From Candidatus Cloacimonadales bacterium (GTDB lineage: Bacteria; Cloacimonadota; Cloacimonadia; Cloacimonadales; JAFGVF01), in the NCBI GenBank assembly GCA_963677495.2, contig CAXXOU010000004.1:224001-288000 (forward strand): a stretch of 64,000 nucleotides of DNA. Direction: 5' to 3'. This document shows positions 2,458 through 19,900 of the stretch, in pieces. The notes below the pieces were generated by a model. That model ran no database searches and was not told where the DNA came from. It saw only the letters and a program-made list of their open reading frames with translations. Position numbers and translations under genes: made by a program. Numbering within the stretch: position 1 is the stretch's first letter; each line of letters begins with the position of its first letter.

Positions 2458-2465
2458 GTAATATT

Positions 2466-3149
2466 ATGAAAAGCAAAATATTAATCACACTTATCATGCT
2501 CATACTTGGTTCTTTCCTTTTTGCAGAACCGGTTAAAGTTATAGGTGTGTTTTGTGGAGAAAAGCAGGAGTTCACTGTTCAAGCTGGAGAAACTCTTTCT
2601 CAAATCTGTGATAAACTGAATATCCCTGTTAAGAAGATAAAATCATTATTGCAGACTGAACTTGATGCTTACAATGAAGCTAATAATCAGGATTTGCCTA
2701 ACTATCATAGAGATTGGGATGCAAAGACTTTAGCAGATCTAAAGGTTACTCCTGAAAGGTTTAAAGAGGTTTATCAGAAGTTCATTGATGAAAGATATGA
2801 GTTTGGTGGCAATATTACTATAGTTGGAATCTCAGTTGTGTTCGTGAGTTTACTTGTAATCTGCCTTCTCATCGGACTCTTTGAGCATATTGGTAAAGAA
2901 AGAAAGCCTAAAACTAAGTCTAAAACAGTTGCAACTTCAGTTGGAAACGTTACCGGTGATGCAGAATCAATGAGTTCTAATTCAATAGTAGCAGTCATAA
3001 TCGCTTTGCATAAGTATAGAACAGAAATAGAAGAGCGTCGTAAAATAATGCTTACTTTCAAAAGAACTCCGGTTTCATTATGGGGTTCACATAACAAAGG
3101 TGATATGCCAAACTATAACTTTAATCAACCTACACGAGGTCGTAAATAA
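2466..3149 (+). CDS. OadG/MmdD-type decarboxylase membrane anchor with an extra N-terminal exported domain
   Basis: Signal peptide, LysM-like segment, TM helix GISVVFVSLLVICLLI, IVAVIIAL motif; operon position. Confidence 0.75.
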   Translation: MKSKILITLIMLILGSFLFAEPVKVIGVFCGEKQEFTVQAGETLSQICDKLNIPVKKIKSLLQTELDAYNEANNQDLPNYHRDWDAKTLADLKVTPERFKEVYQKFIDERYEFGGNITIVGISVVFVSLLVICLLIGLFEHIGKERKPKTKSKTVATSVGNVTGDAESMSSNSIVAVIIALHKYRTEIEERRKIMLTFKRTPVSLWGSHNKGDMPNYNFNQPTRGRK

Positions 3150-3886
3150 TGAAAAGATATAATCTTAAGATAAATGGTGAGACTTACAGCGCCTATATAG
3201 TTAGTTATCATGATTCAGGTGCTGTTGTTGAGGTTAATGGTAATAAGTTCTCAGTAGAGTTCTTAGAAGATGGTTCTGCTTCAATTCCAAAGATTGAGCG
3301 TTCTGCTCGTGAGTTACCTGCAACTCCTGAATTTGAAAACAATAATGATAGCGATGGTAGCATTTACTCTCCAATCCCGGGTGTGATTGTAAAAGTACTT
3401 GCTGAAGAGGGTGAGGAAGTTAAGAAAGGTCAGCCTATTGTGATTCTTGAAGCTATGAAGATGGAATCAGAGATTCCTGCACCTTGTAATGGTAAGATTG
3501 CTGAGATTCTTGTAAAAGAGAAAGCTCCTGTTACTGAAGGTCAGCTCATGGTGAAAGTTACACCTTCTAACAAACCTGCACCTGCTCAGAAACCTAAACC
3601 TCAGCCAAAGAAAAAAGCACCTGTTCAAGCTCCTGTAGCTCCTGCTCCAACTCCTGCACCTTCAGCCGGAGGAAAAGGTGTTTCAGCTCCTATTCCAGGC
3701 ACTATACTTGGTATTAAAGTTAAAGTTGGTGACAGAGTTAATGCAGGTGACCCTGTAATCATCCTTGAAGCAATGAAAATGGAATCAGAGATTTCATCAG
3801 AATATGCCGGAACAGTTACTAACATCAGATTCAACACAGGCGACGCTGTGCAAGAAGGTGATGTTATGATAGAATTAGGAGACTAA
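3149..3886 (+). CDS. mmdC: Biotin carboxyl carrier subunit with two biotinyl domains
   Basis: Two EAMKM motifs separated by a Pro/Ala/Lys-rich linker. Confidence 0.9.
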   Translation: MKRYNLKINGETYSAYIVSYHDSGAVVEVNGNKFSVEFLEDGSASIPKIERSARELPATPEFENNNDSDGSIYSPIPGVIVKVLAEEGEEVKKGQPIVILEAMKMESEIPAPCNGKIAEILVKEKAPVTEGQLMVKVTPSNKPAPAQKPKPQPKKKAPVQAPVAPAPTPAPSAGGKGVSAPIPGTILGIKVKVGDRVNAGDPVIILEAMKMESEISSEYAGTVTNIRFNTGDAVQEGDVMIELGD

Positions 3887-3888
3887 TC

Positions 3889-5016
3889 ATGCAAGAAATG
3901 GTGAATTTCTTTCACACTACCGGATTTGCTAACTTCAATCTTGGATACTTCTCCATGATTGTTATCGGTTTAGTATTTATCTATCTTGGTATTGCTAAAC
4001 ATTATGAGCCACTTTTACTTGTCCCTATCGGGTTCGGTATTGTGGTTGGTAACATTCCCGGTATATCAATGCAGGGACAGAGTGTCTATGACACCGGTTC
4101 TGTTATGTACTACCTTTATCAAGGCGTTAGTAGAGGTTATTATCCTCCGCTTATCTTCCTCGGTATTGGTGCTATGACAGACTTCTCGACCTTGATTGCT
4201 AATCCGAAGCTAATTCTACTCGGTGCAGCTGCTCAGGCCGGTATCTTTATTACATTTATCGGATCACTACTATTAGGCTTCAACCTTATGGAAGCAGCAT
4301 CTATTGGTATTATCGGTGGTGCTGATGGTCCTACATCTATATATATAGCATCTAAGCTTGCACCTCATCTTCTTGGTGCTATTGCTGTGGCTGCTTATTC
4401 ATATATGGCACTTGTGCCTGTGATTCAACCACCTATCATGAGACTTCTTACCACCAAGAAAGAGCGTGTTATCAAGATGAAGACACCTCGTATTGTCTCT
4501 AAACGTGAAAAGATTATCTTCCCAATAGTGGCTATGATTATCACTACTTTCATCGCTCCGGGTGGTATCGCACTTCTCTCTATGCTTTTCTTCGGAAACT
4601 TACTTAAAGAGTGTGGTGTTACAGAACGTCTTGCCAACACTGCAAGAACATCCATGAACGATATGGTTGTGATTCTGCTTGGTTTCACAGTTGGTGCATC
4701 TACAAATGCTAAATACTTCTTGAATGTGACTTCTATCAAGATCTTCCTGCTTGGTGCTTTCTCATTCTGTATTGCAACAGCATTTGGTGTACTTTTTGCC
4801 AAGTTCATGAACCTTTTCCTCAAAGAAAAAATCAATCCGCTTATCGGTAATGCAGGTGTTTCAGCTGTGCCTGATTCAGCTCGTGTTTCACAGGTAATCG
4901 GACAGGAATATAATAAGTCAAACTACCTTCTTATGCATGCTATGGCTCCAAACGTTGCCGGTGTTATCGGTTCCGCTGTTGCTGCTGGTGTGATGCTTGG
5001 TATTTTGGCTCATTAA
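3889..5016 (+). CDS. mmdB: Na+-translocating decarboxylase beta subunit
   Basis: EPLLLVPIGFG, IGIIGGADGPT, AYSYMALVP, GVSAVP motifs; polytopic membrane protein. Confidence 0.95.
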   Translation: MQEMVNFFHTTGFANFNLGYFSMIVIGLVFIYLGIAKHYEPLLLVPIGFGIVVGNIPGISMQGQSVYDTGSVMYYLYQGVSRGYYPPLIFLGIGAMTDFSTLIANPKLILLGAAAQAGIFITFIGSLLLGFNLMEAASIGIIGGADGPTSIYIASKLAPHLLGAIAVAAYSYMALVPVIQPPIMRLLTTKKERVIKMKTPRIVSKREKIIFPIVAMIITTFIAPGGIALLSMLFFGNLLKECGVTERLANTARTSMNDMVVILLGFTVGASTNAKYFLNVTSIKIFLLGAFSFCIATAFGVLFAKFMNLFLKEKINPLIGNAGVSAVPDSARVSQVIGQEYNKSNYLLMHAMAPNVAGVIGSAVAAGVMLGILAH

Positions 5017-5041
5017 TAGATAAAAAGTAAACCATTCTTCC

Positions 5042-5075
5042 AAAAGCCTATTCTTGAAAAGGAATAGGCTTTTTT
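5042..5075 (+). terminator. Intrinsic terminator of the decarboxylase operon
   Basis: aaaagcctattc / gaataggctttt hairpin followed by T run. Confidence 0.85.
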
Positions 5076-5077
5076 GT

Positions 5078-5302
5078 TGTCATGCTGAGCGAAGTGAGTT
5101 TTGCGAACGCAGTCGAACCGAAGACCATCGGGAGGAGCTCGCTTGCCGAAGGCGAGCAACTATTTATCTCTCCGATAACTTTAGTCTCCAAACTAAATAA
5201 GAGCTATTTTCCGAAGGAAAACATTCATAAGATAAGTCAATACTGCAACAGATATCCACTAAAGCCACCGGAGCGAACTGTTCAACTTCGCTCAGGGTGA
5301 CA
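5078..5302. repeat. Palindrome-bounded MITE/REP-like element, copy A
   Basis: Ends tgtcatgctgagcg ... cgctcagggtgaca; internal blocks shared with 50373-50623. Confidence 0.8.
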
Positions 5303-5579
5303 AACACGGGAGCGGTCACCTGTGTGAGTTTGCGAGCATGGAGAATTGCGTAATAGGTTTCATTCACGAACTTCGAAGTACGTAATTCTCCGAACTTCTT
5401 TCAGTCGTAATGGTGACCGCTTTCGTAAGTGTACACAGTGCCTTTTTCAACAACTTACGGCATTTCAGGGAGTTTGTCGGCCTGATAAGGCAACGGACTT
5501 CCTAAAATGCACTTCGAAGTGGCTATTCCTGATTTCGTTCTCGCGTCACGCTATCGCTGCAACGCAAGTCCGAAATTGA

Positions 5580-5775
5580 CATACACAGCGCCTTTTTCAA
5601 CAACTTAGCTATATTTATTGCCCTTTTAGCTCTCTTTTACTGCTCTATCCATCAACGCACTGTGCTCCCACTGTGCACGCACTGTGAAGGCACTGCCAAC
5701 CCACTGTTTCACTGGGTGCACAGTGCGTGCACAGTGGGAAAACAGTGGGATGACTGTGTTTTGGTAAAAAGTTTA
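5580..5775 (+). repeat. 196-bp dispersed repeat with 11-bp-period CACTGT/ACAGTG array, copy 1
   Basis: Colinear with 39186-39381; 5680-5756 is identical to 39286-39362. Confidence 0.9.
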
Positions 5776-5839
5776 CAGGAAGTTTGCGATATCGAAAATG
5801 ATGTATAAAAGTATAACAGTGATAGAACTGAGAAATATC

Positions 5840-5881
5840 TTGACTGAATTAAGTAGCTCTTAATAATTAAGCGTTACTTAA
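5840..5881 (+). promoter_or_regulatory. Promoter with tandem TTAAG-N5-CTTAA operators
   Basis: TTGACT at 5840-5845; palindromes at 5849-5863 and 5867-5881 overlap the spacer and -10 region. Confidence 0.7.
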
Positions 5882-5916
5882 ACTAATAAAAGGTATATAA
5901 TAAAGGAGTGAGACAT

Positions 5917-6591
5917 ATGATTGGAGAAAGAATAGTCGAACTTAGAAAGGAATTTGGGATTTCACAAGCGAAACTAGCTGAACAGTTAGGAGTAAAACCG
6001 GCAGCAGTATCTCAATTTGAAAAGGGTAAAACTAAGCCAGCTATCGAAACATTACTGAACATTGCTGATATTTTTAAAGTTAATCTACATTGGCTCTTGA
6101 AGAATGAGGGACAGAAGTATATAAATAGTACGAGTGAAGAGATACATTTTGTCGATTCACCTGTTTCTTTTAACACTGAGATTGATATGATGGAACTTCC
6201 TGTAGTTGGTGAGATTTCTGCAGGTCAACCACTCCCATGTTATCAAGATGCGGGTGAATCAGTGAAGATTAATGCTAATGAGTTAAGTGGGAATCCTGAT
6301 GATTTTCTCTGCTTTAGAGTAAATGGTGAGAGTATGCAACCTGAAATTATGCATGGAGATAAGGTCCTGATAAGGAAATCAAATGATTGGGATGCAGCTG
6401 AAGGGAAGGTTTGTGCTGTGAGACTTGACGGAGAAATAACCTTGAAGAAACTTGCCTTCAATGAAGATGATAAGAGTATAAGATTGATACCTCTAAACGT
6501 AGAGTTTGAGGATATTATCATAAGACCGGATGAGCATAGTGATATTATGCTGTTAGGCATACTTGTTTATCTCTACAGGAAAATTCAATGA
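5917..6591 (+). CDS. XRE HTH plus S24 peptidase (LexA/CI-like) repressor
   Basis: N-terminal HTH, LPVVGEISAG cleavage site, GESMQP Ser and TLKKL Lys; start moved to ATG 5917 after aggag. Confidence 0.9.
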   Translation: MIGERIVELRKEFGISQAKLAEQLGVKPAAVSQFEKGKTKPAIETLLNIADIFKVNLHWLLKNEGQKYINSTSEEIHFVDSPVSFNTEIDMMELPVVGEISAGQPLPCYQDAGESVKINANELSGNPDDFLCFRVNGESMQPEIMHGDKVLIRKSNDWDAAEGKVCAVRLDGEITLKKLAFNEDDKSIRLIPLNVEFEDIIIRPDEHSDIMLLGILVYLYRKIQ

Positions 6592-6603
6592 TAAGGTAGT
6601 TAA

Positions 6604-7386
6604 ATGAAAAGACAGTTGATTAGACATATTATTCAGGGCGTACTCTTCGTTCTAACTTTGGTTTTTATTTATTTTAGTTATACAGGTATACTTGCAACAG
6701 TGCATTCTGTATGCCCGAATGCTGTAGTTTGTTTCGGATTACCGGGTATAATAAACAAGTTTTATGCCTTTGTACCTGCTTTGCTAGTTGGATTAGCTAT
6801 TCTGCTATCTAGTATGTTCTTTGGTAGATGGTTCTGTGGATATGTATGTTTCTTTGGGACACTACAAGAAAAGAGCTTCCAGGCTTTTAGCAAAAAAAAG
6901 AAACTAAAAGAGAAGATGTCACACTATTATGAGAAGAAACTTAGCATAACTAAATACTTGATTCTCATTTTTACAATGATAAGTGCTATCTTCTTTAGTA
7001 TCCATTTTTACCATAAGTTCTGTCCGGTAATTGTAATTACATCATTAAATCATATTAGTTGGCAGGGAATTATAATTGTAGTTGTCTTTACTATAGTTGC
7101 TTTCTTTTCAAGCAGATTTTGGTGCAGGTTTTTATGTCCATATGGAGCGTTAATGAATCTGTTTCAATATTTTGGGAAGCTGTTAAGAGTTCCAAGATTG
7201 AAAATATTCCGTAACCTTGAGCTCTGTGTTGATTGTAATTTGTGTAACAGATCGTGTCCTATGAATATTAGCATATCTGATAAAGAAGTGATAGATGATG
7301 TGAATTGTATACATTGTGGTGAGTGTATAGCCCATTGTCCTAAGAATAAAGGGCTTTTGGAAAAATTTCCAAACAAAAAAAGTTAG
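6604..7386 (+). CDS. Membrane polyferredoxin (NapH/MauN-like)
   Basis: GRWFCGYVC, RFWCRFLCPYG, two CxxCxxCxxxCP motifs, TM helices. Confidence 0.88.
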   Translation: MKRQLIRHIIQGVLFVLTLVFIYFSYTGILATVHSVCPNAVVCFGLPGIINKFYAFVPALLVGLAILLSSMFFGRWFCGYVCFFGTLQEKSFQAFSKKKKLKEKMSHYYEKKLSITKYLILIFTMISAIFFSIHFYHKFCPVIVITSLNHISWQGIIIVVVFTIVAFFSSRFWCRFLCPYGALMNLFQYFGKLLRVPRLKIFRNLELCVDCNLCNRSCPMNISISDKEVIDDVNCIHCGECIAHCPKNKGLLEKFPNKKS

Positions 7387-7615
7387 AGTTATGGATAAAA
7401 GTCCAAAACAGTAGTTAAAGAGTTAAAATACAGTAAGATATAATGTGTTAAAGTTCTTTAAAATGTTCCAACATGGCGTTGTAACTCTTTGTTAGAAGGA
7501 AATTTATAAAAAAGTAGTTGACAACTGTTTGCTTTTGATTAAATTGTATACTGTACTTAGTGATAGATAAGTGATGAATTAATTGGCCTACAGACCCTAC
7601 ATAGAATGCCCTCCG

Positions 7616-7656
7616 AACACAACGGTTGCCTCCCGGTAATCGTTGTGTTTTTTTAT
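7616..7656 (+). terminator. Terminator-like hairpin in the glmS leader
   Basis: aacacaacggttgcc / ggtaatcgttgtgtt stem followed by T run. Confidence 0.7.
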
Positions 7657-7723
7657 TGGACAAAAATCTCTCTTATCATATCTTCAAATCAAGAATACTA
7701 AAATCAAAGATGAGGTACTAAGA

Positions 7724-9562
7724 ATGTGCGGAATAGTAGGATATATAGGTAATAAGAATGCTGTTAAAGTATCAGTTGATGCCTTGAAAAGACTTGAGTA
7801 TAGGGGATATGATAGCTCAGGCGTAGCGACTTTACAAAAAAATAACTCACTTTTCATTGCTAAGAAAAAGGGTAAGATAAAGGAGTTAGAGAAGGAACTG
7901 ATCAGTTCTGACTTTAAATTATCAGAGTTAGCAATTGCTCATACAAGATGGGCTACACACGGTGAACCCAATGAGATTAATGCTCATCCTCACAGTGATT
8001 GTAGTGGTAAAGTAGCTCTTGTACATAATGGAATTATTGAAAATTATAAAGCACTTCGAAAACGATTAGAGGGCGAAGGTTGTGTTTTCATGTCACAGAC
8101 AGACACGGAAGTGTTAGCACATTTAGTTGGCTACTTTTATAAAGAAGGTGTTGAACTTGTTGAAGCTGTTCAATCAGCCCTCAAACTTGTCGAAGGAACT
8201 TATGGGATAGCTGTAATATCTCCTAATGAACCGGGGAAGATCGTTGCTGCACGTAAAGGGTCACCACTTATTCTTGGAATTGGAGATGATGAACATTTCA
8301 TCGCATCTGATGTGAACGCAATTATTATCCATACTAAGAGAGTTATCTACCTGCAGGATGAGGAAGTTGCTGTAGTTACAAATGATAGTTTTGAACTTTC
8401 AACCATACACAATGAATCACTTCAACCTAAAATCTCTGAAATTGACTGGGATGCAACAGATAGCGAGAAAGGTAACTTCAAACACTTCATGCTTAAAGAA
8501 ATATTCGAACAATCAATTACAATTAGACATGCATTCCGTGGACGATTGATTGAGTCATTAGCTACTGCCAGACTTGGTGGTATGAATATGACTTTGCCTG
8601 AGTTACAGAAGGTCAAGAAGATAATCTTGATTGCATGTGGAACATCTTACCATACCTGTATTCTTGGTAAATATCTGCTTGAAAAGATGGCAAGAATGCC
8701 TGTACAGATTGACTATGCGAGTGAGTTCAGATATAGAAATCCAATAATCCAGGAAGACACGATTGTCTTTGTAATAAGCCAATCTGGTGAAACTGCTGAT
8801 ACTATTGCTGCTTTACGTGAAGCAAAAGCGAAAGGAGCACGTGTACTTGGTATTACGAATGGTATCGGTTCTACAATAGCACGAGAAACCGATGGTGGTA
8901 CTTATATCCATGCCGGAACTGAGATTGGTGTTGCTTCGACTAAAGCTTTTACCTCGCAAGTAACAATTCTGTATCTCTTAGGTATCCTCTTTGGTAGAAT
9001 GAGAAATCTGTCTCATGTGGATGGTTTGCACTATATGGAAGAACTTAAGAAGATTCCTGAAAAAGTAGAGTCTATTACGAAACAATCTGATAAGATTAGA
9101 GAAATAGCAAAGAAGATTGTTGATTCTAAGAATGCATTATTCCTTGGTCGTGATGTACATTTCCCTGTTGCCCTAGAAGGTGCTTTGAAACTGAAAGAGA
9201 TATCATATATCCATGCAGAAGGTTATCCGGCAGCAGAGATGAAACATGGTCCTATCGCACTTATTGATGAAGAGATGCCGGTTATTGCGATTGCTATGAA
9301 AGATGTGCTTTATGATAAAGTGTTCTCTAACTTGCAGGAAGTGAAAGCCAGAAAAGGTAGATTATTTACAATTGCTTCAGAAGATGATGATCAATTGAAG
9401 TCAATCTCAGAAGAAGTTATCTATATCCCTCATACAATCCATGAGCTTCAGCCGTTGTTATCTGTGATTCCATTGCAACTACTGGCATATCATGTGGCTG
9501 ATTTGAGAGATCTTGATGTGGATCAACCACGTAACTTAGCAAAGTCAGTTACTGTAGAATAG
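7724..9562 (+). CDS. glmS: Glutamine-fructose-6-phosphate transaminase
   Basis: MCGIVG start at 7724, LEYRGYDS, HTRWATHG, PRNLAKSVTVE. Confidence 0.98.
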   Translation: MCGIVGYIGNKNAVKVSVDALKRLEYRGYDSSGVATLQKNNSLFIAKKKGKIKELEKELISSDFKLSELAIAHTRWATHGEPNEINAHPHSDCSGKVALVHNGIIENYKALRKRLEGEGCVFMSQTDTEVLAHLVGYFYKEGVELVEAVQSALKLVEGTYGIAVISPNEPGKIVAARKGSPLILGIGDDEHFIASDVNAIIIHTKRVIYLQDEEVAVVTNDSFELSTIHNESLQPKISEIDWDATDSEKGNFKHFMLKEIFEQSITIRHAFRGRLIESLATARLGGMNMTLPELQKVKKIILIACGTSYHTCILGKYLLEKMARMPVQIDYASEFRYRNPIIQEDTIVFVISQSGETADTIAALREAKAKGARVLGITNGIGSTIARETDGGTYIHAGTEIGVASTKAFTSQVTILYLLGILFGRMRNLSHVDGLHYMEELKKIPEKVESITKQSDKIREIAKKIVDSKNALFLGRDVHFPVALEGALKLKEISYIHAEGYPAAEMKHGPIALIDEEMPVIAIAMKDVLYDKVFSNLQEVKARKGRLFTIASEDDDQLKSISEEVIYIPHTIHELQPLLSVIPLQLLAYHVADLRDLDVDQPRNLAKSVTVE

Positions 9563-9575
9563 ATAAAGTAAAAAT

Positions 9576-9610
9576 TATAAAAGGCCCGTGAAATTCGGGC
9601 CTTTTTATAT
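9576..9610. terminator. Bidirectional terminator
   Basis: aaaaggcccg / cgggcctttt between convergent genes. Confidence 0.85.
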
Positions 9611-9620
9611 TGTTAAAGTA

Positions 9621-10103
9621 CTAAAGTAATTCAGTTAGTTGTCCTGTCTCAACATCAACTTTGATCAGTTCAACTCCAGCTTCTTTCATCATCTCTTCAG
9701 CAAGTTGATCATTATATGGCTCTGCGATGTATACTTTTCTAATCTCAGAATTGATAATAATCTTAGCACAGATACTACATGGTTGGTTTGTACAATAAAG
9801 CTCTGCACCTTTAATTGAGTGCCCGTTTACCGCTGCTTGAATGATAGCATTTTGCTCAGCATGGACTCCTCGACACATCTCATGTCTTTGTCCGGAAGGG
9901 ATATTCATCTGTTGTCTGAGGCAACCTGTTTCGGAGCAATGTCTTACTCCTTTAGGTGAACCATTATAACCTGTTGATAGTATCTGGTTGTTGCGGACAA
10001 TCACTGCACCAACTTTGCGTCTTGTGCAGGTTGAGCGTTCGGAAGCTAAATAAGCCATTTTCATAAAGTATTGCTGCCAATAAGGACGTTGTTCTGACAT
10101 CAT
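9621..10103 (-). CDS. dCMP/cytidine deaminase family (ComEB-like)
   Basis: STGYNG, HAEQNA, PCSIC motifs. Confidence 0.93.
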
Positions 10104-10181
10104 GTACCCCTTTTTCGTGATGTGATAAGCATAACATCATTTATAACTTGTCAAGTGGCAATTCAAACAAATTCTGGAATC

Positions 10182-11426
10182 ATGAATAAGATACAGAAAC
10201 CAAAACTTGATTTACATGGCACCATAGAACTTGAAGGCTCAAAGTCAATCCTGCAAAGACTGATTCTCATATCGCTTTTCTTAAAAGATGAACTAAGAGT
10301 TACTAACTGGAGTAGCTCCAATGATGTAACTGAGATGTCTAAAGCAGTTGGAGTTGAGTCCACAGAGAAAGATGTACTCCTCTCAGTTTCATGTTTACAG
10401 GATACTATACACATTGATGAGTCAGCCACAGCGTTGAGATTCTTAGTTACTTATGCATCACTCAATGAAGGAAAGAAAACATCAATCACAATGGGGAAGA
10501 GGTTAGCAAAAAGACCACATGATATCCTCTTTGATTTACTGAGAAAGCTTGGAGCTGCTATTGATGTTATAGATTGTAGAATTGATATAGTAGGTTCTAA
10601 ACCTACTTTGAAATCAATAGATGTTCCTGCTAATGTTAGCAGTCAGTACATATCTGCTTTATTACTCTGTGCTCCATTATTCGAAAACGGTCTCACATTC
10701 AAACTCATCCCTCCGATTGTATCAAAAAACTATATCGAACTTACAATTGCCTTAATGACAACTTTTGGTATCACAGTCAGTTATGAAGAGAATGTGATTA
10801 CTATCCCACCAAAGAGTAATTATAAAGATATCAATAACTTCACTTGTGAAGCAGACCTTTCCTCAGCCATATACCCCCTTTGTGTCGGACTTTTCTCAGA
10901 AAAGGGAATTGGAGTCACTCCTATCTCTAATCACACGAAACAACCCGATTTTGTCTTCTGGAAGCTACTTTCAGATGCCGGTGCTGATATAAAACTTCAT
11001 TATAGAGAAGATAGTGAGGAAGCAGTGCTCATTTCTAAACTTACAGATTATGATGGGTTTACCTTTGATGCAATGAGAGCCCCGGACCTCGTACCTGCAT
11101 TGGCTCTACTCGCTTTGTTCGCTGATACAGAGTCTATGATTACGAATGTAGATTATCTTAAGAATAAAGAATCAAATAGAGTTGTAGGCATTGTAAATAA
11201 CTTCAAACTCTTAGGTGCTGATATAGAATATAATGATAGCACTTTGACTATTCAACCTCTATCTGATAACCCAAATAGCGTAACCTTAGATACACAAAAC
11301 GACCATCGATTAGCAATGGTATTTTATATCATTACTCTTATGTTTCCACAAGTTAGCATAAATGAAAGAGATTCTATAGGGAAGTCATACCCACACTTTA
11401 TAGATGATATTGCAAATTTAAAGTAA
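10182..11426 (+). CDS. aroA: EPSP synthase
   Basis: GSKS, SATALRF, SSQYISALL, KESNR, DHRLAM; likely start 10182. Confidence 0.92.
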   Translation: MNKIQKPKLDLHGTIELEGSKSILQRLILISLFLKDELRVTNWSSSNDVTEMSKAVGVESTEKDVLLSVSCLQDTIHIDESATALRFLVTYASLNEGKKTSITMGKRLAKRPHDILFDLLRKLGAAIDVIDCRIDIVGSKPTLKSIDVPANVSSQYISALLLCAPLFENGLTFKLIPPIVSKNYIELTIALMTTFGITVSYEENVITIPPKSNYKDINNFTCEADLSSAIYPLCVGLFSEKGIGVTPISNHTKQPDFVFWKLLSDAGADIKLHYREDSEEAVLISKLTDYDGFTFDAMRAPDLVPALALLALFADTESMITNVDYLKNKESNRVVGIVNNFKLLGADIEYNDSTLTIQPLSDNPNSVTLDTQNDHRLAMVFYIITLMFPQVSINERDSIGKSYPHFIDDIANLK

Positions 11427-11430
11427 TTAG

Positions 11431-11463
11431 AAAAAGGCAACTCAAAATTGAGTTGCCTTTTCA
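11431..11463. terminator. Bidirectional terminator
   Basis: aaaaaggcaactc / gagttgcctttt. Confidence 0.85.
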
Positions 11464-11479
11464 AATTAAATAGTTTCGA

Positions 11480-12424
11480 TTACAAAGTAATAATTGTACC
11501 TGTCTTACCTTCTAAAGCTTCGGTAAGGTACTCATGAGAAGTGATGATAACTCTTTTACCACCTTTCTCAAGGTAATCAACTGCTGCTAAAATCTTTGGT
11601 CCCATACTACCTTTTGGGAAGTGACCTTCAGCGTGATAGCGTTTTGCATCTTCAGTGTTAAGAGTAGATAGCTCTTCCATCTCAGGCTTACCCCAATTGA
11701 TAGCAACTTTCTCAACACCGGTAAGGATGATAAGTGTATCAGCTTCGATCTGGTTCGCAAGAAGAGCAGAAGCAAAGTCTTTATCGATAACTGCATCCAC
11801 ACCTTCAAGGGTTTGGTTGTTTTCAACATATACAGGAATACCACCACCGCCACAAGAGATAACGATAGTACCGTTTTCCATGAGAGCTTGAATTGCTTTA
11901 GCAGGAATAATATCTTTTGGTTTTGGTGAAGGAACAACCTGACGCCATCCACGGCCTGCATCTTCAGTCATTGACCAGCCATATGCTTCTTGAAGATCTT
12001 TTGCTTGTTCTTCAGTATAGAAAGGACCTACCGGCTTAGATGGATTGCTCATACTTGGATCGTTCTTATCCACAACAATCTGTGTAAGGATTACTGCAAC
12101 CTCAGGTTCAAGACCTGCATTCTTAAGAATATTCTGTAAGCTTTGGTCAATCATATAACCCATTGTACCTTCGGTAGCAGCATTAAGAACGCCTAAAGGA
12201 AGTGGTGCAACACCACGGTCGATACCTGCGTTTTGTTGAATAAGCATGTTGCCAACTTGAGGTCCATTACCATGAGAGATAGCAATCTGGTAACCCTCTT
12301 TAATAAGTTTAGCGATACCATTAAGACTTTCACGAGTATTAGCGAACTGCTCTGTGATAGTTCCTTTTTGTCCGGCTTGGATAATAGCGTTTCCGCCGAG
12401 AGCCAAAACGATTTTCTTATTCAT
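11480..12424 (-). CDS. arcC: Carbamate kinase
   Basis: ALGGNA, HGNGPQVG, AVIDKD, GSMGPK. Confidence 0.97.
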   Translation of the reverse strand: MNKKIVLALGGNAIIQAGQKGTITEQFANTRESLNGIAKLIKEGYQIAISHGNGPQVGNMLIQQNAGIDRGVAPLPLGVLNAATEGTMGYMIDQSLQNILKNAGLEPEVAVILTQIVVDKNDPSMSNPSKPVGPFYTEEQAKDLQEAYGWSMTEDAGRGWRQVVPSPKPKDIIPAKAIQALMENGTIVISCGGGGIPVYVENNQTLEGVDAVIDKDFASALLANQIEADTLIILTGVEKVAINWGKPEMEELSTLNTEDAKRYHAEGHFPKGSMGPKILAAVDYLEKGGKRVIITSHEYLTEALEGKTGTIITL

Positions 12425-12514
12425 ATTATTCTCCTGATACTTTTATTTCTGAAAAGCAAAGTAGGAGACGGTTAAATCTCCTACTTTTAAATATCTATAA
12501 GCTCTACTTATCTG

Positions 12515-13834
12515 TTAGTAGCCTCTTTCTTTGAGTAACTCAGCAAGAGTTGGTTTTCCAATCTCCTGAAGATCATAACTAACACGAGTAGATGGCTGAT
12601 CGATTTTCACAATTCTTCTCAGATCGATTGGAGTACCGATTACAACTGCATCGCACTCAGTCTTTCTGATTGTTTCTTCGAGATCTTTAATCTGCTGTTC
12701 ACCATATCCCATTGCTGGAAGAAGAACACCAACTTCAGGATATTTCTCAAATGTTTCCTGAATCTCACCAACAGCCCAAGGGCGAGGATCAACGAGGTCT
12801 GCAGCACCGCATTTCTCAGCAGCTACAACACCTGCACCATAAGCCATTTCGCCATGTGTGAGAGTTGGACCATCTTCTACAACAAGCACATTCTTGCCAA
12901 GTAATAATTCAGGATCTTCTACTGTAAGAGGAGAAGCAGCTTCTACAATCTTAGCTGTAGGGTTGATAGCACGGCAGTTTTCGCGTACTTCCTGAATATC
13001 ATCAAGGTCAGCTGAGTCGATTTTATTGATAACAATAATATCAGCTAAACGAACGTTTGTTTCGCCAGGATAGTAACTGATTTCATGACCAGGTCTATGT
13101 GGGTCAACAACAACAATGTTAACTTCTTGATCTGAAGTATAGAATGGTGTGTCATTATTACCACCGTCCCAGATGATTACATCAGCTTCTTTCTCAGCTT
13201 CACGCACGATTGCTTCATAGTCAACACCGGCATAAATGATGCTTCCCATTGCAATGTGTGGTTCATACTCTTCCATCTCTTCGATAGTACATTTGTGCTT
13301 TGCAAGGTCTTCAATTACTTCAAAGCGTTGAACTTTCTGAGCTACAAGGTCACCATAAGGCATTGGATGACGGATAGAAACAACCTTTTTACCTACGCTC
13401 TTAAGATAGCGAACAACGGCTCTAGTTGTCTGACTCTTTCCGCAACCTGTTCTAGCTGCACAAATAGTGATAAGTGGTTTAGTTGTTTTAACGCGACCAT
13501 GTTTTTCACCCATAAGCATGAAGTCAGCACCGGCTGCATTAACCATAGCAGCATTATGCATAACTCTTTCGTAAGGGAGATCACTATATGCAAGTACAAC
13601 GATATCTATATCATGTTCCTTAATAAGTTCTGGAACTTTTGCTTCAGGCAGAATTGGAATACCATTCGGATAAAGTTTTCCCGCTAAAGCAGCAGGATAT
13701 TTTTTGTCATCTATGCCCGGAATCTGAGTTGCAGTGAATGCGATTACATTATACTCCTCATTATCTCTAAAGTAATTGTTGAAATTGTGGAAATCTCTTC
13801 CCGCAGCGCCCATAATGATAACTTTCTTTTTCAT
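12515..13834 (-). CDS. arcE: COG2403 / cyclic 2,3-diphosphoglycerate synthetase-like protein; probable arginine synthetase
   Basis: GAAGRDFHNFN, RTGCGKSQT P-loop, RHPMPYG, WDGGNND, EDGPTLTHG; directly upstream of arcC. Confidence 0.75.
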   Translation of the reverse strand: MKKKVIIMGAAGRDFHNFNNYFRDNEEYNVIAFTATQIPGIDDKKYPAALAGKLYPNGIPILPEAKVPELIKEHDIDIVVLAYSDLPYERVMHNAAMVNAAGADFMLMGEKHGRVKTTKPLITICAARTGCGKSQTTRAVVRYLKSVGKKVVSIRHPMPYGDLVAQKVQRFEVIEDLAKHKCTIEEMEEYEPHIAMGSIIYAGVDYEAIVREAEKEADVIIWDGGNNDTPFYTSDQEVNIVVVDPHRPGHEISYYPGETNVRLADIIVINKIDSADLDDIQEVRENCRAINPTAKIVEAASPLTVEDPELLLGKNVLVVEDGPTLTHGEMAYGAGVVAAEKCGAADLVDPRPWAVGEIQETFEKYPEVGVLLPAMGYGEQQIKDLEETIRKTECDAVVIGTPIDLRRIVKIDQPSTRVSYDLQEIGKPTLAELLKERGY

Positions 13835-14207
13835 GGAAACTCCTTTCTAAATGGATTTCCACCAAAAGTGGGGTTCAAAGATAATCAGTCAAGAAAAATT
13901 TAGGTTATTTCTTGGCAATATCTTTTTTGACTTTTTTTGGGGTCTCCTATCAGGCTCTTTATAGCTTATAATGCAAGAGTAGCCTAATTGATTGGGATTG
14001 AAATATGTACGTGATTTATGCTTAAGTGAGTATGCTACAGGATAGATGCAATAAAGGTATGTATTGGACCAATTAAATCAGCTCATCTTTTACCCAAAAC
14101 AAACTCATTAGCAATTTTTTTTATCAACTTCTCTTCAACTATTTAATCAAAAGACATCTTTCAACCTGTTCTTTATATAACATCAATCTCTCACTGCTCC
14201 CTCTATG

Positions 14208-14339
14208 CTCAGCATTAATTCCTGTGAGACACTTGGGTAACCCTTGGGAAACACTTGGGTAATCCTTGGGTTAATTACCAAGGGATAACCAATTTATTAT
14301 TAAGTTAGAATTGATTAGCAAGCAGTTGTTAATGCTGAG
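14208..14339. repeat. IR-bounded element with 11-bp CTTGGG array
   Basis: ctcagcattaa / ttaatgctgag; four 11-bp units at 14231-14274, then inverted CCAAG. Confidence 0.7.
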
Positions 14340-14487
14340 GGAAGAGAGAGGGATAAGGGATAATTTGAGGTGCAAGCCCTTTAGTGTTTTTGATACCAGC
14401 CCTTTGGAAATATAACAAAGACATGTAGCCCTATAGGGGCGAAAGACAACCAACAACAATTATCGTAACATTCCATCTAAAATCATC

Positions 14488-14625
14488 TTACCCCCATTCA
14501 ATAAAGATATGACAAAGATTATATATTTATCCACAACTTGTGACTAACTTACTGCTTTGAGTAAGTGAGTAGTAAGAGAGTAGTAAGTGTGAAGTAAGAG
14601 AGAAGTAAGAATTGAATGGGGGTAA
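14488..14625. repeat. MITE-like element with perfect 15-bp inverted repeats and an 11-bp AGTAAG array
   Basis: ttacccccattcaat (14488-14502) / attgaatgggggtaa (14611-14625); units at 14560-14610. Confidence 0.75.
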
Positions 14626-14859
14626 TCGTAGGAACATAAAATGCTATTTCTCCCGATTTTCCAATGACCAACAAAAGCATAATGTTTATATCCATCCCTT
14701 ATCCAACTTATAAGATTCCTATATGTTTATATAGGTTTCATATAAGAGACATATAGGGAACTTTTAGGGATTATGTGTCCGTTGCTCCTGTGCCTGACGG
14801 GAGATTGGAGGAATAAAATCATTTAAAATTGTGTTGGGATTATATGATGAAGATGTTCG

Positions 14860-15060
14860 TTAGGGTGACCCCTTTAGGATCAGGTTTGTTTTTATTCCCG
14901 TCCATAAGCTAAAGCCTATGGCTATTATTGGGTTATCCTTGTAGGATAAATGGGCTGCAATGCCCTTAGATAGAACCCTAATTGGGTTCACCAATGTTAG
15001 CCACAGGTTTCAACCTGTGGAATATGATAAAACAATAATTCAATCCTAAATGGATTGCCC
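14860..15060. repeat. REP-like palindrome cluster
   Basis: Hairpins such as ccacaggtttcaacctgtgg, gaaccctaattgggttc, ccataagctaaagcctatgg. Confidence 0.7.
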
Positions 15061-15198
15061 ATTTATCCCTTGCTGATGAAAATCAATAGTGTCATTAAGG
15101 TATAATACAATTTCTTTCTTGCCATCTCGAAACCATATCTTAATATTTGCCTTAACAGATAATAATACTCAATGCAGGAGATTTAAGGGTGTTTATTT

Positions 15199-17211
15199 AT
15201 GAGACTTAAAAGATTAGATTTGAATGAAAATGATGTAGAGGATTTTGGATTAAGTACGATCAGAAGTAAAGAACTAGGACATGTGATTGCATTAGTAGGT
15301 GAAAATGGTGCTGGAAAATCTAGATATTTGAATGCTATCGAAAAACAAATTAAAAATATAAAAACTCCTATATCTTTGATTGATAAACTGTTTAAGCTTA
15401 ATAGGAGTTATGCTAGAGATGCTGATAACTACCAAAAAGCAATCAATACAATAGGTAGAGAAGAAATGGAAATTAGGCTTTCATATTTACGTTCTGAAGA
15501 ATATGAACACAATATAAATCATCAATCAGAAATTGATGAGATTGAGAGAATTCTGGCAGACAATTATGATTTGCCAACTTTTAGCAATACAGAAGAAGCT
15601 GAAACTTTCGAATCTAATACTAAGCAAGTAGTAGTTGACTTTGTTAAAAAGAGATTAGTTGTTATTAAGCATGAGGATATTGTCAATCTACATCAGCAAA
15701 TGAAAAACCCAAAAGTAGGACTTAACGATATTTTAGACAAAGCCAATATTAAAAAGGATTTCAATAAGTTGTTTGAGTCTGTTCTAGAAGATGGATTGAC
15801 ATTTTTTCAAGGCTTAGGCAATGACCTTGCAATGCATCAAATTTTGGAGAGAGAAGACCCCAGAAAAAGTGAGTTCAAAAAGAAAGAAGCTCAATGTGAT
15901 AAACTAATTGGACTGACTAGAGAATTTTTGGATAAGGATTTATCATGGGAGAGAGAAACTTTGAATCATGAACCTAGTCATGAGGGATACAAGCTTTCTG
16001 TAAAAGGTGCATGGTGTTTGAACGGTTACAAGTTCAACTATACTGATTTATCAGAAGGAGAGAGAGTATTGTTTTGTATAGTTTTAATACTTTTCCTATG
16101 TAGCTCAAACTCGGAAGCATCTGCATCTGAATCTATTATATTTTTTGATGAGCCAGAATTGAATTTACATCCTAAAATAGCTATGCGCTTGATAAACAAG
16201 CTTTCTGAACTAATTCAAAATGAAGGACAGTTAATCATAGCAACCCATTCTTTACCAATTATTGCGAATTTGGATTATCGATCAATCTTCATGGTTGATG
16301 ACAACAAAATATACAACCCATGTGCACCCAATATTCCAAAAACTATTAATAAATTGATGGGATTTGAAAATGAAATCATCAGACTTACAGAGTTTCTAAA
16401 GTCACCTGCGGCATGGGCAATGAACAGCTTTCTTGTTGAGTGTTTAACACACCCAAATGAGATAAAAGATATTAAAAAAAACGATCCTGAACTACTTGCA
16501 TTGATTCAAACAATAAACAAAGAATCGGTTAAGATATTGGATTTTGGGGCAGGACAAGGTAGAATGCTTATCGGGTTAAAAGAGCATGAAGAATTTTGGA
16601 AGAAAGTAAAATATGATTGTTATGATCATGAGGGAGAAAATGAGGAATTACTTAAATCTTTGGGAGCAAAAAATGTTATCAATAAACAACATGATCTACC
16701 AGAGAGGAATTATGATATAGTTTCTTTAATAAATGTATTACATGAAGTAGATGTGCTTGAGTGGGGTTGCCTTCTTACTAAGATAAAAAATTGTTTAAAG
16801 GATGATGGACATTTAGTCTTAATTGAAGACTCAATGATCCCTATAGGAGAGTTACCTTGTGATAATGGTTATATTATTCTTTCTGAAATTGAGCTGAAGA
16901 CACTCCTTGGTAAAAAGGCAACAAGAGTTTCTCTAAAGGATACAGTAAAGAGTGATTACGATGATAGGATTGTATGTGTATCGATTTCAAAAGCGTCAAT
17001 GAACAGTTTTGATTCAGAAATAGTGCGAGAAACTTTGCTTGAGTTAAAGAAGAACACTTTCAGAGAAGTAAAAGAATTTTACTCGAAGGAAGATGAGAAA
17101 CCATTGAACAAAGAATCTGTTAGGGATGGTCGTAATTTTGCTAGAAAAGCTATACTACATACTAATAGTATTATCGCATTAGAAAAGCTAACGAAAGCAA
17201 TGAAAATATGA
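15199..17211 (+). CDS. ABC/AAA_21-type ATPase fused to a C-terminal class I SAM-dependent methyltransferase
   Basis: GENGAGKS Walker A, LSEGE signature, FFDEPELNLHP Walker B, IATHS; ILDFGAGQGR and YDIVSLINVLHE MTase motifs. Confidence 0.85.
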   Translation: MRLKRLDLNENDVEDFGLSTIRSKELGHVIALVGENGAGKSRYLNAIEKQIKNIKTPISLIDKLFKLNRSYARDADNYQKAINTIGREEMEIRLSYLRSEEYEHNINHQSEIDEIERILADNYDLPTFSNTEEAETFESNTKQVVVDFVKKRLVVIKHEDIVNLHQQMKNPKVGLNDILDKANIKKDFNKLFESVLEDGLTFFQGLGNDLAMHQILEREDPRKSEFKKKEAQCDKLIGLTREFLDKDLSWERETLNHEPSHEGYKLSVKGAWCLNGYKFNYTDLSEGERVLFCIVLILFLCSSNSEASASESIIFFDEPELNLHPKIAMRLINKLSELIQNEGQLIIATHSLPIIANLDYRSIFMVDDNKIYNPCAPNIPKTINKLMGFENEIIRLTEFLKSPAAWAMNSFLVECLTHPNEIKDIKKNDPELLALIQTINKESVKILDFGAGQGRMLIGLKEHEEFWKKVKYDCYDHEGENEELLKSLGAKNVINKQHDLPERNYDIVSLINVLHEVDVLEWGCLLTKIKNCLKDDGHLVLIEDSMIPIGELPCDNGYIILSEIELKTLLGKKATRVSLKDTVKSDYDDRIVCVSISKASMNSFDSEIVRETLLELKKNTFREVKEFYSKEDEKPLNKESVRDGRNFARKAILHTNSIIALEKLTKAMKI

Positions 17212-17235
17212 TGCAAAAACATGTAGGAGTATAGA

Positions 17236-17979
17236 ATGATTAGAGAAGGATTTATAATAATGATGGATATACTTGGATACAAAGATTTTGTTACAAAGAA
17301 GTTCGATTATAATGATTTCTTTGATGTATGGAGAGATTTAAAATATACTATCGAATCAAGTCAAGAAACCATTAAAAAGAGAATCCCTAGCTTTGATATT
17401 TACATTACTGGTTTCTCGGATACTTACTTTATCTGCATCTCTTTTCAAGATAGGTTTGTTAAAGAAAATACTGACGATATAGAGTATTGTTTTCTATTTA
17501 TAAACCATTTTCTGCCTGAGTTATTGCATAAATCGCTGTTAAGTAAAATCTACCTTAGAGGTGCAATAAGTTTTGGTGAATATGCTATTGATACAGAAAA
17601 TAATATAATAATAGGTGAAGCCTTAAATGATGCTGCAGAATGGTGTGAATCTACCAATTGGATGGGAATAATCTTATCCCCAAGTGCTGCGATTCAATTA
17701 GAAAAAGTGATGAAGCGTCCTGATGGTGATGGAGAATCATTGCATAGAAAGGCATTAATACTTAGTATGTATGCAACCTACCCAATCCCATACAAAAATA
17801 ACAATTACGGAAGTAAGTATGCGTTTAACCTTTTAGCTCCTTTTCCATTTACAAGTGCTAGTTTCTTTCTAAAAGAGCTAAGGAAAAAGTTTAGTGAAAC
17901 AGTTAACTCTCATAGTGAAGATAAATATAAGAACACGATGAAGTTTCTTGAGTTTTGTCTAGAAAAGATAGAGAAGTGA
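17236..17979 (+). CDS. Class III nucleotidyl-cyclase-like protein
   Basis: MDILGYK, FSDTYF, LRGAISFGE, IGEALNDA pattern; RBS aggag. Confidence 0.6.
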   Translation: MIREGFIIMMDILGYKDFVTKKFDYNDFFDVWRDLKYTIESSQETIKKRIPSFDIYITGFSDTYFICISFQDRFVKENTDDIEYCFLFINHFLPELLHKSLLSKIYLRGAISFGEYAIDTENNIIIGEALNDAAEWCESTNWMGIILSPSAAIQLEKVMKRPDGDGESLHRKALILSMYATYPIPYKNNNYGSKYAFNLLAPFPFTSASFFLKELRKKFSETVNSHSEDKYKNTMKFLEFCLEKIEK

Positions 17980-18024
17980 GACAATTAGGAATTGGGCATG
18001 GTCTAAACTATATCCTTAATAAAT

Positions 18025-18285
18025 TGTGCGACCCATATAGGGTCGAAATCACTTTTTTGGGAACAGAGACCATGGGCTTACGCCACATGGCTATTCACAT
18101 TCTGTCCTTATCGGACAGGGAGAAGAGCTAATAGCTTGTAGCCTATAGCCTATAGCTTACAGTTAATAGTTAGTGTTGTTCGTTAGGGTCGCAATTCCCC
18201 GAACTCCCTTTGGTCGTAATGGTGACCGCTACTGTTTATTCAATTCTCGAAGATGCGGACAGGATGTCCGCGGTCCCAGTTAGAC
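18025..18285. repeat. REP-like palindromes and heptamer tandem repeats
   Basis: cgacccatatagggtcg, ccatgggcttacgccacatgg, gcggacaggatgtccgc, (tagcyta)n. Confidence 0.7.
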
Positions 18286-18350
18286 AATTTATTTGACTTT
18301 TTATGCTAGTTATGTTATATATGGATTGTATGAATAAAAGGAAGTGAATT

Positions 18351-19655
18351 ATGCAAAATCCTACAAAGACAATACTGAAAAAGCGTGATGGAGGGCAGTT
18401 AACTGCCTCAGAGATAAAGCATTTTATTGAATCATATTTAAAGGGAGTGGTTCCTGAGTACCAGATGTCAGCGATGCTGATGGCAATATATATGAAAGGA
18501 ATGGTTCCGGAAGAGATAGCAACACTTACAGATGTATACATAAAATCCGGTGATTTCATTGAATTCCCTAATGACATTATTACAGTTGATAAACACTCAA
18601 CCGGTGGAGTAGGTGATAAGATATCTTTGATGTTAGCACCGCTTGTAGCTTCTTTTGGAGTTCATGTTCCTATGATATCAGGCCGTGGCTTAGGTCATAC
18701 CGGTGGTACTTTAGATAAGTTAGATTCTATCCCCGGTTTCAAAACCAATATAGAAACAGAAGAGTTTAAGCGCATTGTGACTGAAGTTGGTTTGTCTATT
18801 ATAGGTCAGACTGAAAGACTTGTTCCTGCTGATAAGAGAATTTATGCCCTCAGAGATGTGACTGCTACTGTAGAAAGCTTACCACTTATCACAGCCAGTA
18901 TTATGAGTAAGAAGATAGCAGAAGGAGCAAAGAACCTTGTTGTTGACCTTAAAGTTGGTGAAGGTGCTTTCATGGACTCTATGGAAAAGGCTGAACAGCT
19001 AGCTGAACTTCTCATAAACACAGGTGAACAATTCGGACAGAAGGTTACAGTTGTCTTTACTAATATGAATGCTCCACTTGGTTTCTATGTCGGTAACTCA
19101 TTGGAAGTAATCGAGACTTTCGAATATCTCAAAGGTAAACATATACCTGATGTAGACCTTATAACAAGAACTCTCGCTACTGAGATGCTGATAATGACCG
19201 GTAAATACACTGACTGGAACAAAGCTTTCAATGAAACAGGTGTTAAGATTGCTGATGGTACAGCTCTTAAATATTGGGAGAAGATGCTGGAAGTACAGGG
19301 GGCTGATATGAGAGTTTGCAATGACTACAGTCTCTTCCCAAAAGCTAAATATGAAATCCCAATCGTATCACACAAATCAGGTAGAATCAAACGCATTGAT
19401 AGTAGAGCTATCGGATATGCACTTATAGATGTTAAAGCCGGACGCAGAAAGATAACAGATGAACTTGATTTTAGCTCAGGTGCTCTCCTAACTCATAAGA
19501 TTGGCAATGGTGTCTTTGAGAATGAAGACTTAGGCGTTGTATATTGCAACAACAAAGCAGACGGTGAGAAAGTTGCCAAGTTCATTGCCCAGTGTTATGA
19601 GATAGTACCTGATGAGGTAGAAAAGCAGGATGTGATATTGGGGATTTGGAGATAG
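18351..19655 (+). CDS. pdp: Pyrimidine-nucleoside / thymidine phosphorylase
   Basis: DKHSTGGVGDK, SGRGLGHTGGTLDKL, SIMSKK. Confidence 0.95.
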   Translation: MQNPTKTILKKRDGGQLTASEIKHFIESYLKGVVPEYQMSAMLMAIYMKGMVPEEIATLTDVYIKSGDFIEFPNDIITVDKHSTGGVGDKISLMLAPLVASFGVHVPMISGRGLGHTGGTLDKLDSIPGFKTNIETEEFKRIVTEVGLSIIGQTERLVPADKRIYALRDVTATVESLPLITASIMSKKIAEGAKNLVVDLKVGEGAFMDSMEKAEQLAELLINTGEQFGQKVTVVFTNMNAPLGFYVGNSLEVIETFEYLKGKHIPDVDLITRTLATEMLIMTGKYTDWNKAFNETGVKIADGTALKYWEKMLEVQGADMRVCNDYSLFPKAKYEIPIVSHKSGRIKRIDSRAIGYALIDVKAGRRKITDELDFSSGALLTHKIGNGVFENEDLGVVYCNNKADGEKVAKFIAQCYEIVPDEVEKQDVILGIWR

Positions 19656-19702: not shown

Positions 19703-19900
19703 GACCCGATAGGGTCACAAAATACTAGCCAATGGGTCCACGACCCATGGACATGAAACAATGAGACCGCAATCCGATTAGGATTGCACTAATCCCATTC
19801 CCCAAACAGAGGTATAATGCAATCCATGTAGGATTGAAATTACATTAACCCAGACCATGGATCGTGGACCCATTGGCTAGTATTATGCTTTCCTCCGGAA
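19703..19900. repeat. REPIN-like doublet (inverted REP pair)
   Basis: 30-bp arms 19721-19750 and 19855-19884 are reverse complements at 29/30. Confidence 0.85.

Follow-up and report, generated by a model that had tools for sequence, protein, structure and literature searches.

Several described bacterial defence systems combine an ABC ATPase or a nucleotide cyclase with a partner protein. Septu contains the ATPase PtuA and the HNH protein PtuB, the ATPase of PARIS is a sensor that releases an effector (PMC12839542), and MADS joins an ATPase with methylation. Pycsar depends on cytidylate/uridylate cyclases, and Panoptes illustrates that a synthase of small size may work constitutively and make a decoy (PMC12657218). 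Here we describe two adjacent genes in a 64,000-nucleotide stretch of a Candidatus Cloacimonadales genome (contig CAXXOU010000004.1, positions 224,001–288,000; hereafter, the window). Gene 1 encodes an ABC ATPase fused to a class I S-adenosylmethionine (SAM) methyltransferase, and the product of gene 2, which belongs to an unnamed family, is a minimal protein with a predicted class III cyclase fold. Relatives of the two genes were never found together in the DNA searched, so two separate add-ons are likelier than one new system. The reading that we favour, with moderate confidence, is that two independent, uncharacterised defence-type genes are stacked in a strain-specific islet and do not form a conserved two-gene system.

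Comparison with described systems

In the PADLOC library, gene 1 is matched by generic ABC-ATPase models alone (PtuA, AriA, mad3, Old, HEC and PDC ATPases). No model, those of Pycsar included, matches gene 2 at E ≤ 1. An earlier note on this DNA, made from the sequence alone, had recognised the combination as no named system, and the library comparison agrees. The best match to gene 1 is PtuA of Septu, the same type of ABC ATPase, which also occurs in retron Ec78 (E-value of 2.2e-20, residues 1–440). However, the NCBIfam PtuA model gives gene 1 a score of 43.7 bits against a cut-off of 500, no PtuB HNH partner is adjacent, the sole same-strand neighbour is the cyclase-fold gene 2, and a methyltransferase is fused to the ATPase. 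The AriA models of PARIS match gene 1 at 2.5e-18 over residues 28–355, whereas the AriAB model matches the ATPase part alone (residues 278–359). An AriB Toprim partner is lacking, and neither gene 1 nor gene 2 has a Toprim domain; unlike in PARIS, the candidate effector here is a methyltransferase that forms one protein with the ATPase. The PADLOC mad3 model, for MAD3 of MADS, matches gene 1 at 1.5e-15 over residues 3–360. However, the NCBIfam antiphage_MADS3 model gives 25 bits against a cut-off of 420, and MADS comprises several genes, a DNA methyltransferase among them, whereas gene 1 is without DNA-methylase motifs.

Gene 2 shares its fold with the Pycsar cyclases (PycC; entries 7r65, 8jsf and 8jsz), with Z-scores of 9.7–10.9 over 164–173 residues. 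Both putative metal-binding Asp residues are kept in gene 2, but the canonical Asn and Arg positions are not conserved in its family. The neighbours of gene 2 are gene 1 and the pyrimidine-nucleoside phosphorylase gene pdp, and no cyclic-nucleotide-binding effector is adjacent. A cNMP-binding Pfam domain is absent from gene 1 and from the 33 + 10 neighbour proteins scanned around gene-2 relatives. The Panoptes protein OptS (mCpol; entry 9mnr), a small palm-domain nucleotide synthase in immunity, matches gene 2 with a Z-score of 7.2 over 109 residues, much more weakly than the class III cyclases do. The only same-strand neighbour of gene 2 is gene 1, and no OptE-like membrane effector adjoins gene 2 (no OptE model was compared).

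PrrC and RloC are encoded by accessory genes with ABC-ATPase-like domains inside restriction–modification (RM) operons, where they provide a back-up when restriction is blocked. The parallel with the present locus is one of description: gene-2 relatives lie within RM operons of types I and III, and gene 1 combines an ATPase with a fused output. The PrrC/RloC effector is an anticodon nuclease, unlike the methyltransferase or the cyclase fold found here.

Membership of Septu, PARIS, Gabija, MADS and Pycsar was considered and rejected, and membership of Panoptes is improbable. Literature searches on ABC ATPase–methyltransferase fusions, cyclase-like proteins of defence islands and standalone prophage cyclases retrieved no account of either family, and neither is mentioned in the parts consulted of PMC12839542, PMC10853773 and the MANTIS preprint.

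Distribution of the two gene families

A six-frame search within 5–6 kb of gene-1 relatives detected a gene-2 relative at none of 11 loci (10 of them distinct). Conversely, a gene-1 relative is present at none of 57 gene-2 loci (59 scanned), which comprise 16 loci from the window's phylum and 41 from metagenome and viral contigs; some of these are redundant, with about 40 distinct sequences, and 12 derive from viral contigs. The gene-2 family is also absent from the whole of each of the five genomes that carry the gene-1 family. The earlier note had proposed one two-gene system and had made that proposal depend on co-occurrence elsewhere, which is not observed in any of the three comparisons; that claim is unsupported.

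In the window's phylum, the gene-1 family is present in the host genome alone out of 232 genomes, apart from one partial, weak match, whereas the gene-2 family is present in 26 of the 232. Outside the phylum, a sample of 401 genomes from the order Flavobacteriales, for which three candidates per genome were scored, contained the gene-1 family twice. The nearest relatives differ in lineage, those of gene 1 belonging to Flavobacteriia and those of gene 2 to prophages of the window's own phylum. No match was obtained on searching plasmids with gene 1 or viral contigs with the gene-1 alignment.

Gene-1 relatives are solo at every locus seen, and the 20 neighbouring proteins scanned around them include no HD hydrolase. 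Five of them (L002–L005 and L008) lie among housekeeping genes. Another (L007) is carried on a mobilisable element, alongside a relaxase, an HpaII RM system and an HATPase_c_3/Hypoth_Ymh protein; a further one (L009) lies between a SIR2_2 gene and ResIII and PIN genes, and one (L006) follows a Bro-N gene. The accessory region of a prophage contains a distant relative of 617 residues, which comes after a repressor-like gene and has an O-antigen acetylase moron close by.

Genomic contexts of gene-2 relatives

One setting of the gene-2 family, accounting for 32 loci, is a single prophage slot between two tandem D12 Dam methylase genes and the tail tape-measure gene. These loci belong to a prophage lineage of the window's phylum, on contigs of approximately 20–40 kb (L075, L078–L080, L094, L096, L097, L123–L128 and others). 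The gene-2 relative, reversed and solo, shares its strand with no other gene in this slot. Because it runs towards the Dam genes, co-transcription with them does not occur.

Elsewhere, gene-2 relatives are found among RM and other defence genes. In a type I RM system at two loci (L077 and L108), the relative comes after the M and S genes. At two others (L115, positions 3034–8650, and L122) it lies between the Mod gene (N6_N4 methylase) and the Res gene of a type III system, the latter comprising ResIII plus an endonuclease domain, and is followed by the Shedu gene SduA. It is also found with a Res gene of type III on one side and the gene for an MmeI-like (type IIG) enzyme on the other (L084), following genes for an SNF2 helicase and a methylase of the Eco57I type (L076), ahead of genes for a Dam methylase and a DndB-like protein (L083), and near AbiEii (L082), Type ISP (L089) and DUF6119 (L085) genes. 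In the gene-2 tree, phage and island copies interleave, and gene 2 of the window falls in an unresolved polytomy among them. The family moves between prophages, as reversed, solo 'morons' (accessory genes whose direction opposes that of the other prophage genes), and RM or defence islands.

The frequency of methylase genes in these settings raises the alternative that the gene-2 family consists of methyltransferase-associated accessory factors, for example sensing SAM/S-adenosylhomocysteine, methylation state or anti-restriction attack, with gene 1 merely supplying the methyltransferase. A methyltransferase is encoded no further than two genes from the gene-2 relative at the 32 prophage loci and at L076, L077, L108, L083, L084 (type III Mod and the MmeI-like gene), L115 and L122, and in the window the upstream gene 1 ends in a methyltransferase domain. 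However, the 32 prophage loci represent one lineage in which the gene and the Dam genes converge, defence islands of every sort commonly contain RM genes, and no methyltransferase is nearby at L081, L082, L085–L088 or on the Bacillus plasmids that carry gene-2 relatives. The methyltransferase of gene 1 is, moreover, not of the DNA type. We regard this alternative as improbable.

One genome (G001) contains two paralogous cyclase-like genes (L081, positions 1595–6351, and L082, positions 5981–10771). Each adjoins a gene for a 140-residue receiver-domain protein and one for a protein of approximately 1200 residues with a C-terminal HATPase_c domain. This trio is co-directional at one locus and convergent at the other.

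We infer the defence role, the substrates and the products of both genes from their homology classes and from the contexts of their relatives. The defence function put forward in the earlier note is plausible for each gene on those contexts, whereas the single system it proposed, coupling phage sensing with methylation and with nucleotide signalling, is unsupported.

A strain-specific islet

The two genes constitute a strain-specific foreign islet, with lower GC content than their surroundings, no counterpart in relatives, flanks of dispersed repeats and a position at a synteny break. Genes 1 and 2 have GC fractions of 0.324 and 0.316, respectively, compared with 0.370 ± 0.030 for 32 long open reading frames of the window; the description of the unit as AT-rich in the earlier note is correct on these values, although the shift is modest. 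No match to either gene was detected in five relatives of the same genus and family. In the complete genome of a member of the same genus (G113), the sequence of the left flank (window positions 11432–13938) is located at 623.5–626.0 kb and pdp at 538.6–540.0 kb, so that the two flanks of the islet are approximately 85 kb apart.

The spacers on both sides of the islet (14100–15198 and 17980–18350) are mosaics of repeat units of about 45–160 bp. The boundary repeats have 55 (left) and 40 (right) further matches in the same genome, with copies also in genomes of the same genus. Some of the left repeats contain hairpin arms, and these elements look like miniature inverted-repeat transposable elements (MITE-like) or REP-like sequences. 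A mobile cassette with its own terminal repeats was considered and rejected, no inverted or direct repeat pair framing both genes.

Evidence for a possible functional pair

Several observations weigh against independence of the two genes. The arrangement reported in the earlier note, a two-gene unit with the open reading frames in the positions given for them and a 24-bp gap, is correct. Gene 2 has its own Shine–Dalgarno sequence, no terminator-like site was found between the two genes, and the sole terminator-like site on the plus strand lies past gene 2. On this layout, genes 1 and 2 are probably co-transcribed. Their shared low GC content and shared absence from relatives would fit a joint acquisition. 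All known relatives of either gene are only 31–37% identical, that is, about one-third, so a pairing limited to an unsampled donor lineage could have been missed, and the two genes could still be coupled.

Furthermore, the gene-2 family is not always autonomous, since it includes sub-branches with upstream partners on the same strand. In one sub-branch, a gene for an M1E1E6-like protein of approximately 220 residues lies upstream on the same strand at three of three loci, which belong to two phyla. The two genes of this unit overlap or are separated by 1–3 bp, the cyclase-like protein has 214–228 residues, and the partners are 47–50% identical across the phyla. Two other loci (L077 and L108) share a gene for a 342-residue protein upstream of the gene-2 relative. 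On pMC319, the M1E1E6-like/cyclase-like unit is situated between a pair of genes for an ATP-binding protein and an HNH protein on one side and an OLD-family nuclease gene on the other.

These points would be explained by a lineage-specific two-component system, in which the ATPase–methyltransferase senses infection and controls, or is controlled by, a cyclase-fold signal maker or effector. Ranged against it are the lack of co-occurrence at the 10 distinct gene-1 loci, the 57 gene-2 loci and in the five genomes, the solo position of all gene-1 relatives seen, the solo and reversed position of the gene-2 relatives at the 32 prophage loci, and the different lineages of the nearest relatives. We consider such a system possible, but would not expect it. 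A related and unlikely proposal is that the gene-2 family comprises widespread minimal cyclase-fold enzymes of immunity or counter-immunity with interchangeable upstream partners, namely the M1E1E6-like protein on the Bacillus plasmids and at L083, and the ATPase–methyltransferase in the window. The pair in the window would then be a real two-component system, in which an ATP-driven sensor with a non-DNA methyltransferase output cooperates with a nucleotide synthase, gene 2 being possibly a constitutive or decoy signal maker of the Panoptes type. Two independent, stacked genes remain the reading that we prefer, and each is considered below as a protein in its own right.

Architecture of gene 1

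The ABC ATPase part of gene 1 matches the Pfam families AAA_21 (3.5e-18) and AAA_15 (5e-14) over residues 30–355. The earlier note had reported a full set of soluble ABC-ATPase motifs, and the Walker A, signature, Walker B and H-loop motifs are all located in the sequence (Table 1). The long insert of the earlier note, approximately 240 residues between Walker A and the signature motif, is present in the sequence, and its helical nature is putative. The relatives of gene 1 are full-length and 32–37% identical to it, and the four ATPase motifs, together with SAM motif I (LDxGxGxGR), are invariant across a 16-member alignment of the family. The methyltransferase domain further possesses NVLHE and GE motifs that are also invariant.

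The C-terminal part matches Methyltransf_23 (2.7e-11) and also Methyltransf_12 over residues 434–542, and shows the Rossmann-like fold and Gly-rich motif I of class I SAM-dependent methyltransferases. A model of residues 421–670 (pLDDT of 87.1) gives at least 500 Foldseek matches at E ≤ 0.001, and those listed are all of the methyltransferase fold. The top matches are small-molecule O- and N-methyltransferases, NRMT1 (acting on protein N termini), METTL6 (tRNA) and TehB, and no DNA methyltransferase is among them. In a profile search against the Protein Data Bank (PDB), the best match of the methyltransferase is a type 11 methyltransferase (3i9f; 2.6e-9). In agreement with the earlier note, which had described a class I methyltransferase without DNA-methyltransferase motifs, gene 1 contains neither [DNS]PP[YFW] nor PC[QH], and the former is present in none of the 16 family members. 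A DNA methyltransferase of the N6A/N4C or C5 type was rejected as an identity for gene 1, motif IV and the PC motif both being missing.

Gene 1 may thus represent a self-contained, one-protein module, in which the ATPase would serve as an ATP-driven sensor or switch and the fused methyltransferase, of the small-molecule, protein or RNA kind, as an output on a substrate of non-DNA type.

Fold and family of gene 2

No Pfam, PADLOC or NCBIfam model matches gene 2 at E ≤ 1, and a word-based homologue search finds only gene 2 itself. An exhaustive HMMER search, by comparison, retrieves 1290 representative clusters at E ≤ 1e-3, the best of them 33% identical; with no match in the three model libraries, the family is both large and unnamed. 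A protein-atlas search returns only clusters annotated as 'hypothetical protein', with Bacillota and Pseudomonadota among their sources. The one library match, found by 29 of 40 family members, is phrog_23933, which is of unknown function. Guanylate_cyc is not among the nine Pfam families matched by 40 gene-2 relatives. A tblastn search of phage records with gene 2 gave no match, and a PDB profile search with the gene-2 alignment gave a chance antibody match at an E-value of 0.76 alone. A search by alignment for longer proteins found no fused forms of the family, which is weak evidence.

An AlphaFold2 model of gene 2, computed from a 40-sequence alignment, has a pLDDT of 91.3. Foldseek places class III guanylyl and adenylyl cyclases first among its matches (4ni2 chain B, 1.9e-6), and VIA-align superposes the model on a guanylate cyclase (3et6 chain B) with a Z-score of 12.7 and a root mean square deviation of 3.5 over 170 residues; the Z-scores with GGDEF domains are about 8. 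The class III cyclase-like character that the earlier note had read from motifs is confirmed at the level of the predicted fold. The model thus assigns gene 2 to the class III cyclase fold, and catalysis of cyclisation is putative.

The most conserved positions of the family are D11, G14, D62, R108-G109, G127, W136, K230 and N233. In class III cyclases, two Asp residues bind metal and an Asn/Arg pair acts on the transition state. A profile–profile alignment with the five canonical cyclase domains of the same genome, weak at a probability of 2.4%, places D11 and D62 on the two invariant metal-binding Asp residues, N131 at the invariant Asn and E135 at the invariant Arg; neither N131 nor E135 is conserved in the gene-2 family. 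In the C-terminal helical hairpin, which the structural matches barely reach, K230 is invariant and N233 nearly so. On these features, gene 2 may bind a nucleoside triphosphate with metal and make or hold a nucleotide product, independently of gene 1.

In the host genome (contigs C1–C4; L145–L151), genes for at least five canonical proteins with a class III cyclase domain (366–841 residues) are present, and the host therefore has cyclic-nucleotide signalling of its own. That endowment, together with the several gene-1 relatives that lie among housekeeping genes, would accommodate one or both genes being unrelated to phage conflict, for example a divergent cAMP/cGMP enzyme and a regulated housekeeping methyltransferase. 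The rare, patchy distributions, the absence of both genes from close relatives, the prophage, plasmid and RM-island contexts and an ATPase of the AAA_21/PtuA/AriA kind all weigh against such roles, which we consider improbable.

Neighbouring genes and features of the locus

The earlier note had placed the unit between arcE and pdp. The right neighbour is indeed pdp (TIGR02644, 505.8 bits). The left neighbour, 1.36 kb away from gene 1, has a weak cobW match alone and no NCBIfam match, which leaves its naming as arcE unconfirmed; next comes the carbamate kinase gene arcC. Four sequencing runs, all from one sample of a single study, contain the stretch, and no RNA run is listed among them. An Rfam scan of positions 13000–19000 at E ≤ 1 found no RNA family, and no retron-like or other known RNA is present in the 1.36-kb upstream spacer. 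Just downstream of pdp, ARAGORN calls a 'tRNA-Cys' with anticodon ACA and a length of 96 nucleotides, both of them unusual. This may be a spurious call, or else an atypical element that resembles a tRNA.

Table 1. Coordinates of the islet, its coding and flanking features, and the M1E1E6-like units at other loci (window positions unless a locus is named)
Feature	Position	Strand	Basis or remark
Gene 1 (P0001)	15199–17211	+	670 residues; ABC ATPase fused to class I SAM methyltransferase
ABC ATPase module, residues 1–380	15199–16338	+	Motif positions, Pfam
Walker A GENGAGKS (residue 34)	15298–15321	+	Gene 1 motif search
Signature LSEGE (residue 284)	16048–16062	+	Gene 1 motif search
Walker B IIFFDEP (residue 313)	16135–16155	+	Gene 1 motif search
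H-loop ATHS (residue 348)	16240–16251	+	Gene 1 motif search
Class I SAM methyltransferase domain, residues 434–600	16498–16998	+	Pfam, model, motifs
SAM motif I ILDFGAGQG (residue 446)	16534–16560	+	Gene 1 motif search
Intergenic gap, 24 bp	17212–17235	+	AGGAG at 17225–17229, 6 nt ahead of the gene 2 ATG
Gene 2 (P0002)	17236–17979	+	247 residues; minimal class III cyclase-fold protein (predicted), unnamed family
Cyclase-fold domain, residues 1–204	17236–17847	+	Foldseek and VIA-align matches
D11 (DILG)	17266–17268	+	Conserved in at least 90% of the gene-2 family
D62 (FSDT)	17419–17421	+	Invariant in the gene-2 family
R108 (RGA)	17557–17559	+	Among the most conserved family positions
C-terminal helical hairpin, residues 205–247	17848–17976	+	Model secondary structure; KY.NT motif
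Left boundary repeats	~14191–14357, 14488–14647, 14647–14811, 14844–15064		Short dispersed repeats, hairpin-forming elements included
Hairpin arms in left repeats	14186–14218/14329–14361 and 14488–14502/14611–14625
Right boundary repeats	~18029–18130, 18126–18169, 18168–18236		Short dispersed repeats
Terminator-like site	18211–18228	+
Left neighbour	12515–13834
pdp	18249–19654
tRNA call	19769–19864	−	ARAGORN
M1E1E6-like + cyclase-like unit	L153 4328–5639; L154 4314–5657; L083 5982–7297		L153 and L154, Bacillus plasmids; L083, window's phylum

Implications

Tight adjacency in one genome is insufficient here to define a system, the relatives of the two genes having separate evolutionary histories. 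Both families lack curated models. To our knowledge, the known ABC-ATPase defence systems use nucleases; if gene 1 is immune, it would represent a new output, a non-DNA methyltransferase, for a well-known class of sensor. If gene 2 is immune, it would add to immunity a very common cyclase-fold family, whose 1290 clusters have no Pfam, NCBIfam or PADLOC model. With its reversed, solo position in one prophage lineage and its place within RM operons of types I and III, the gene-2 family would lend itself to study as a candidate for a role in superinfection exclusion or in restriction back-up.

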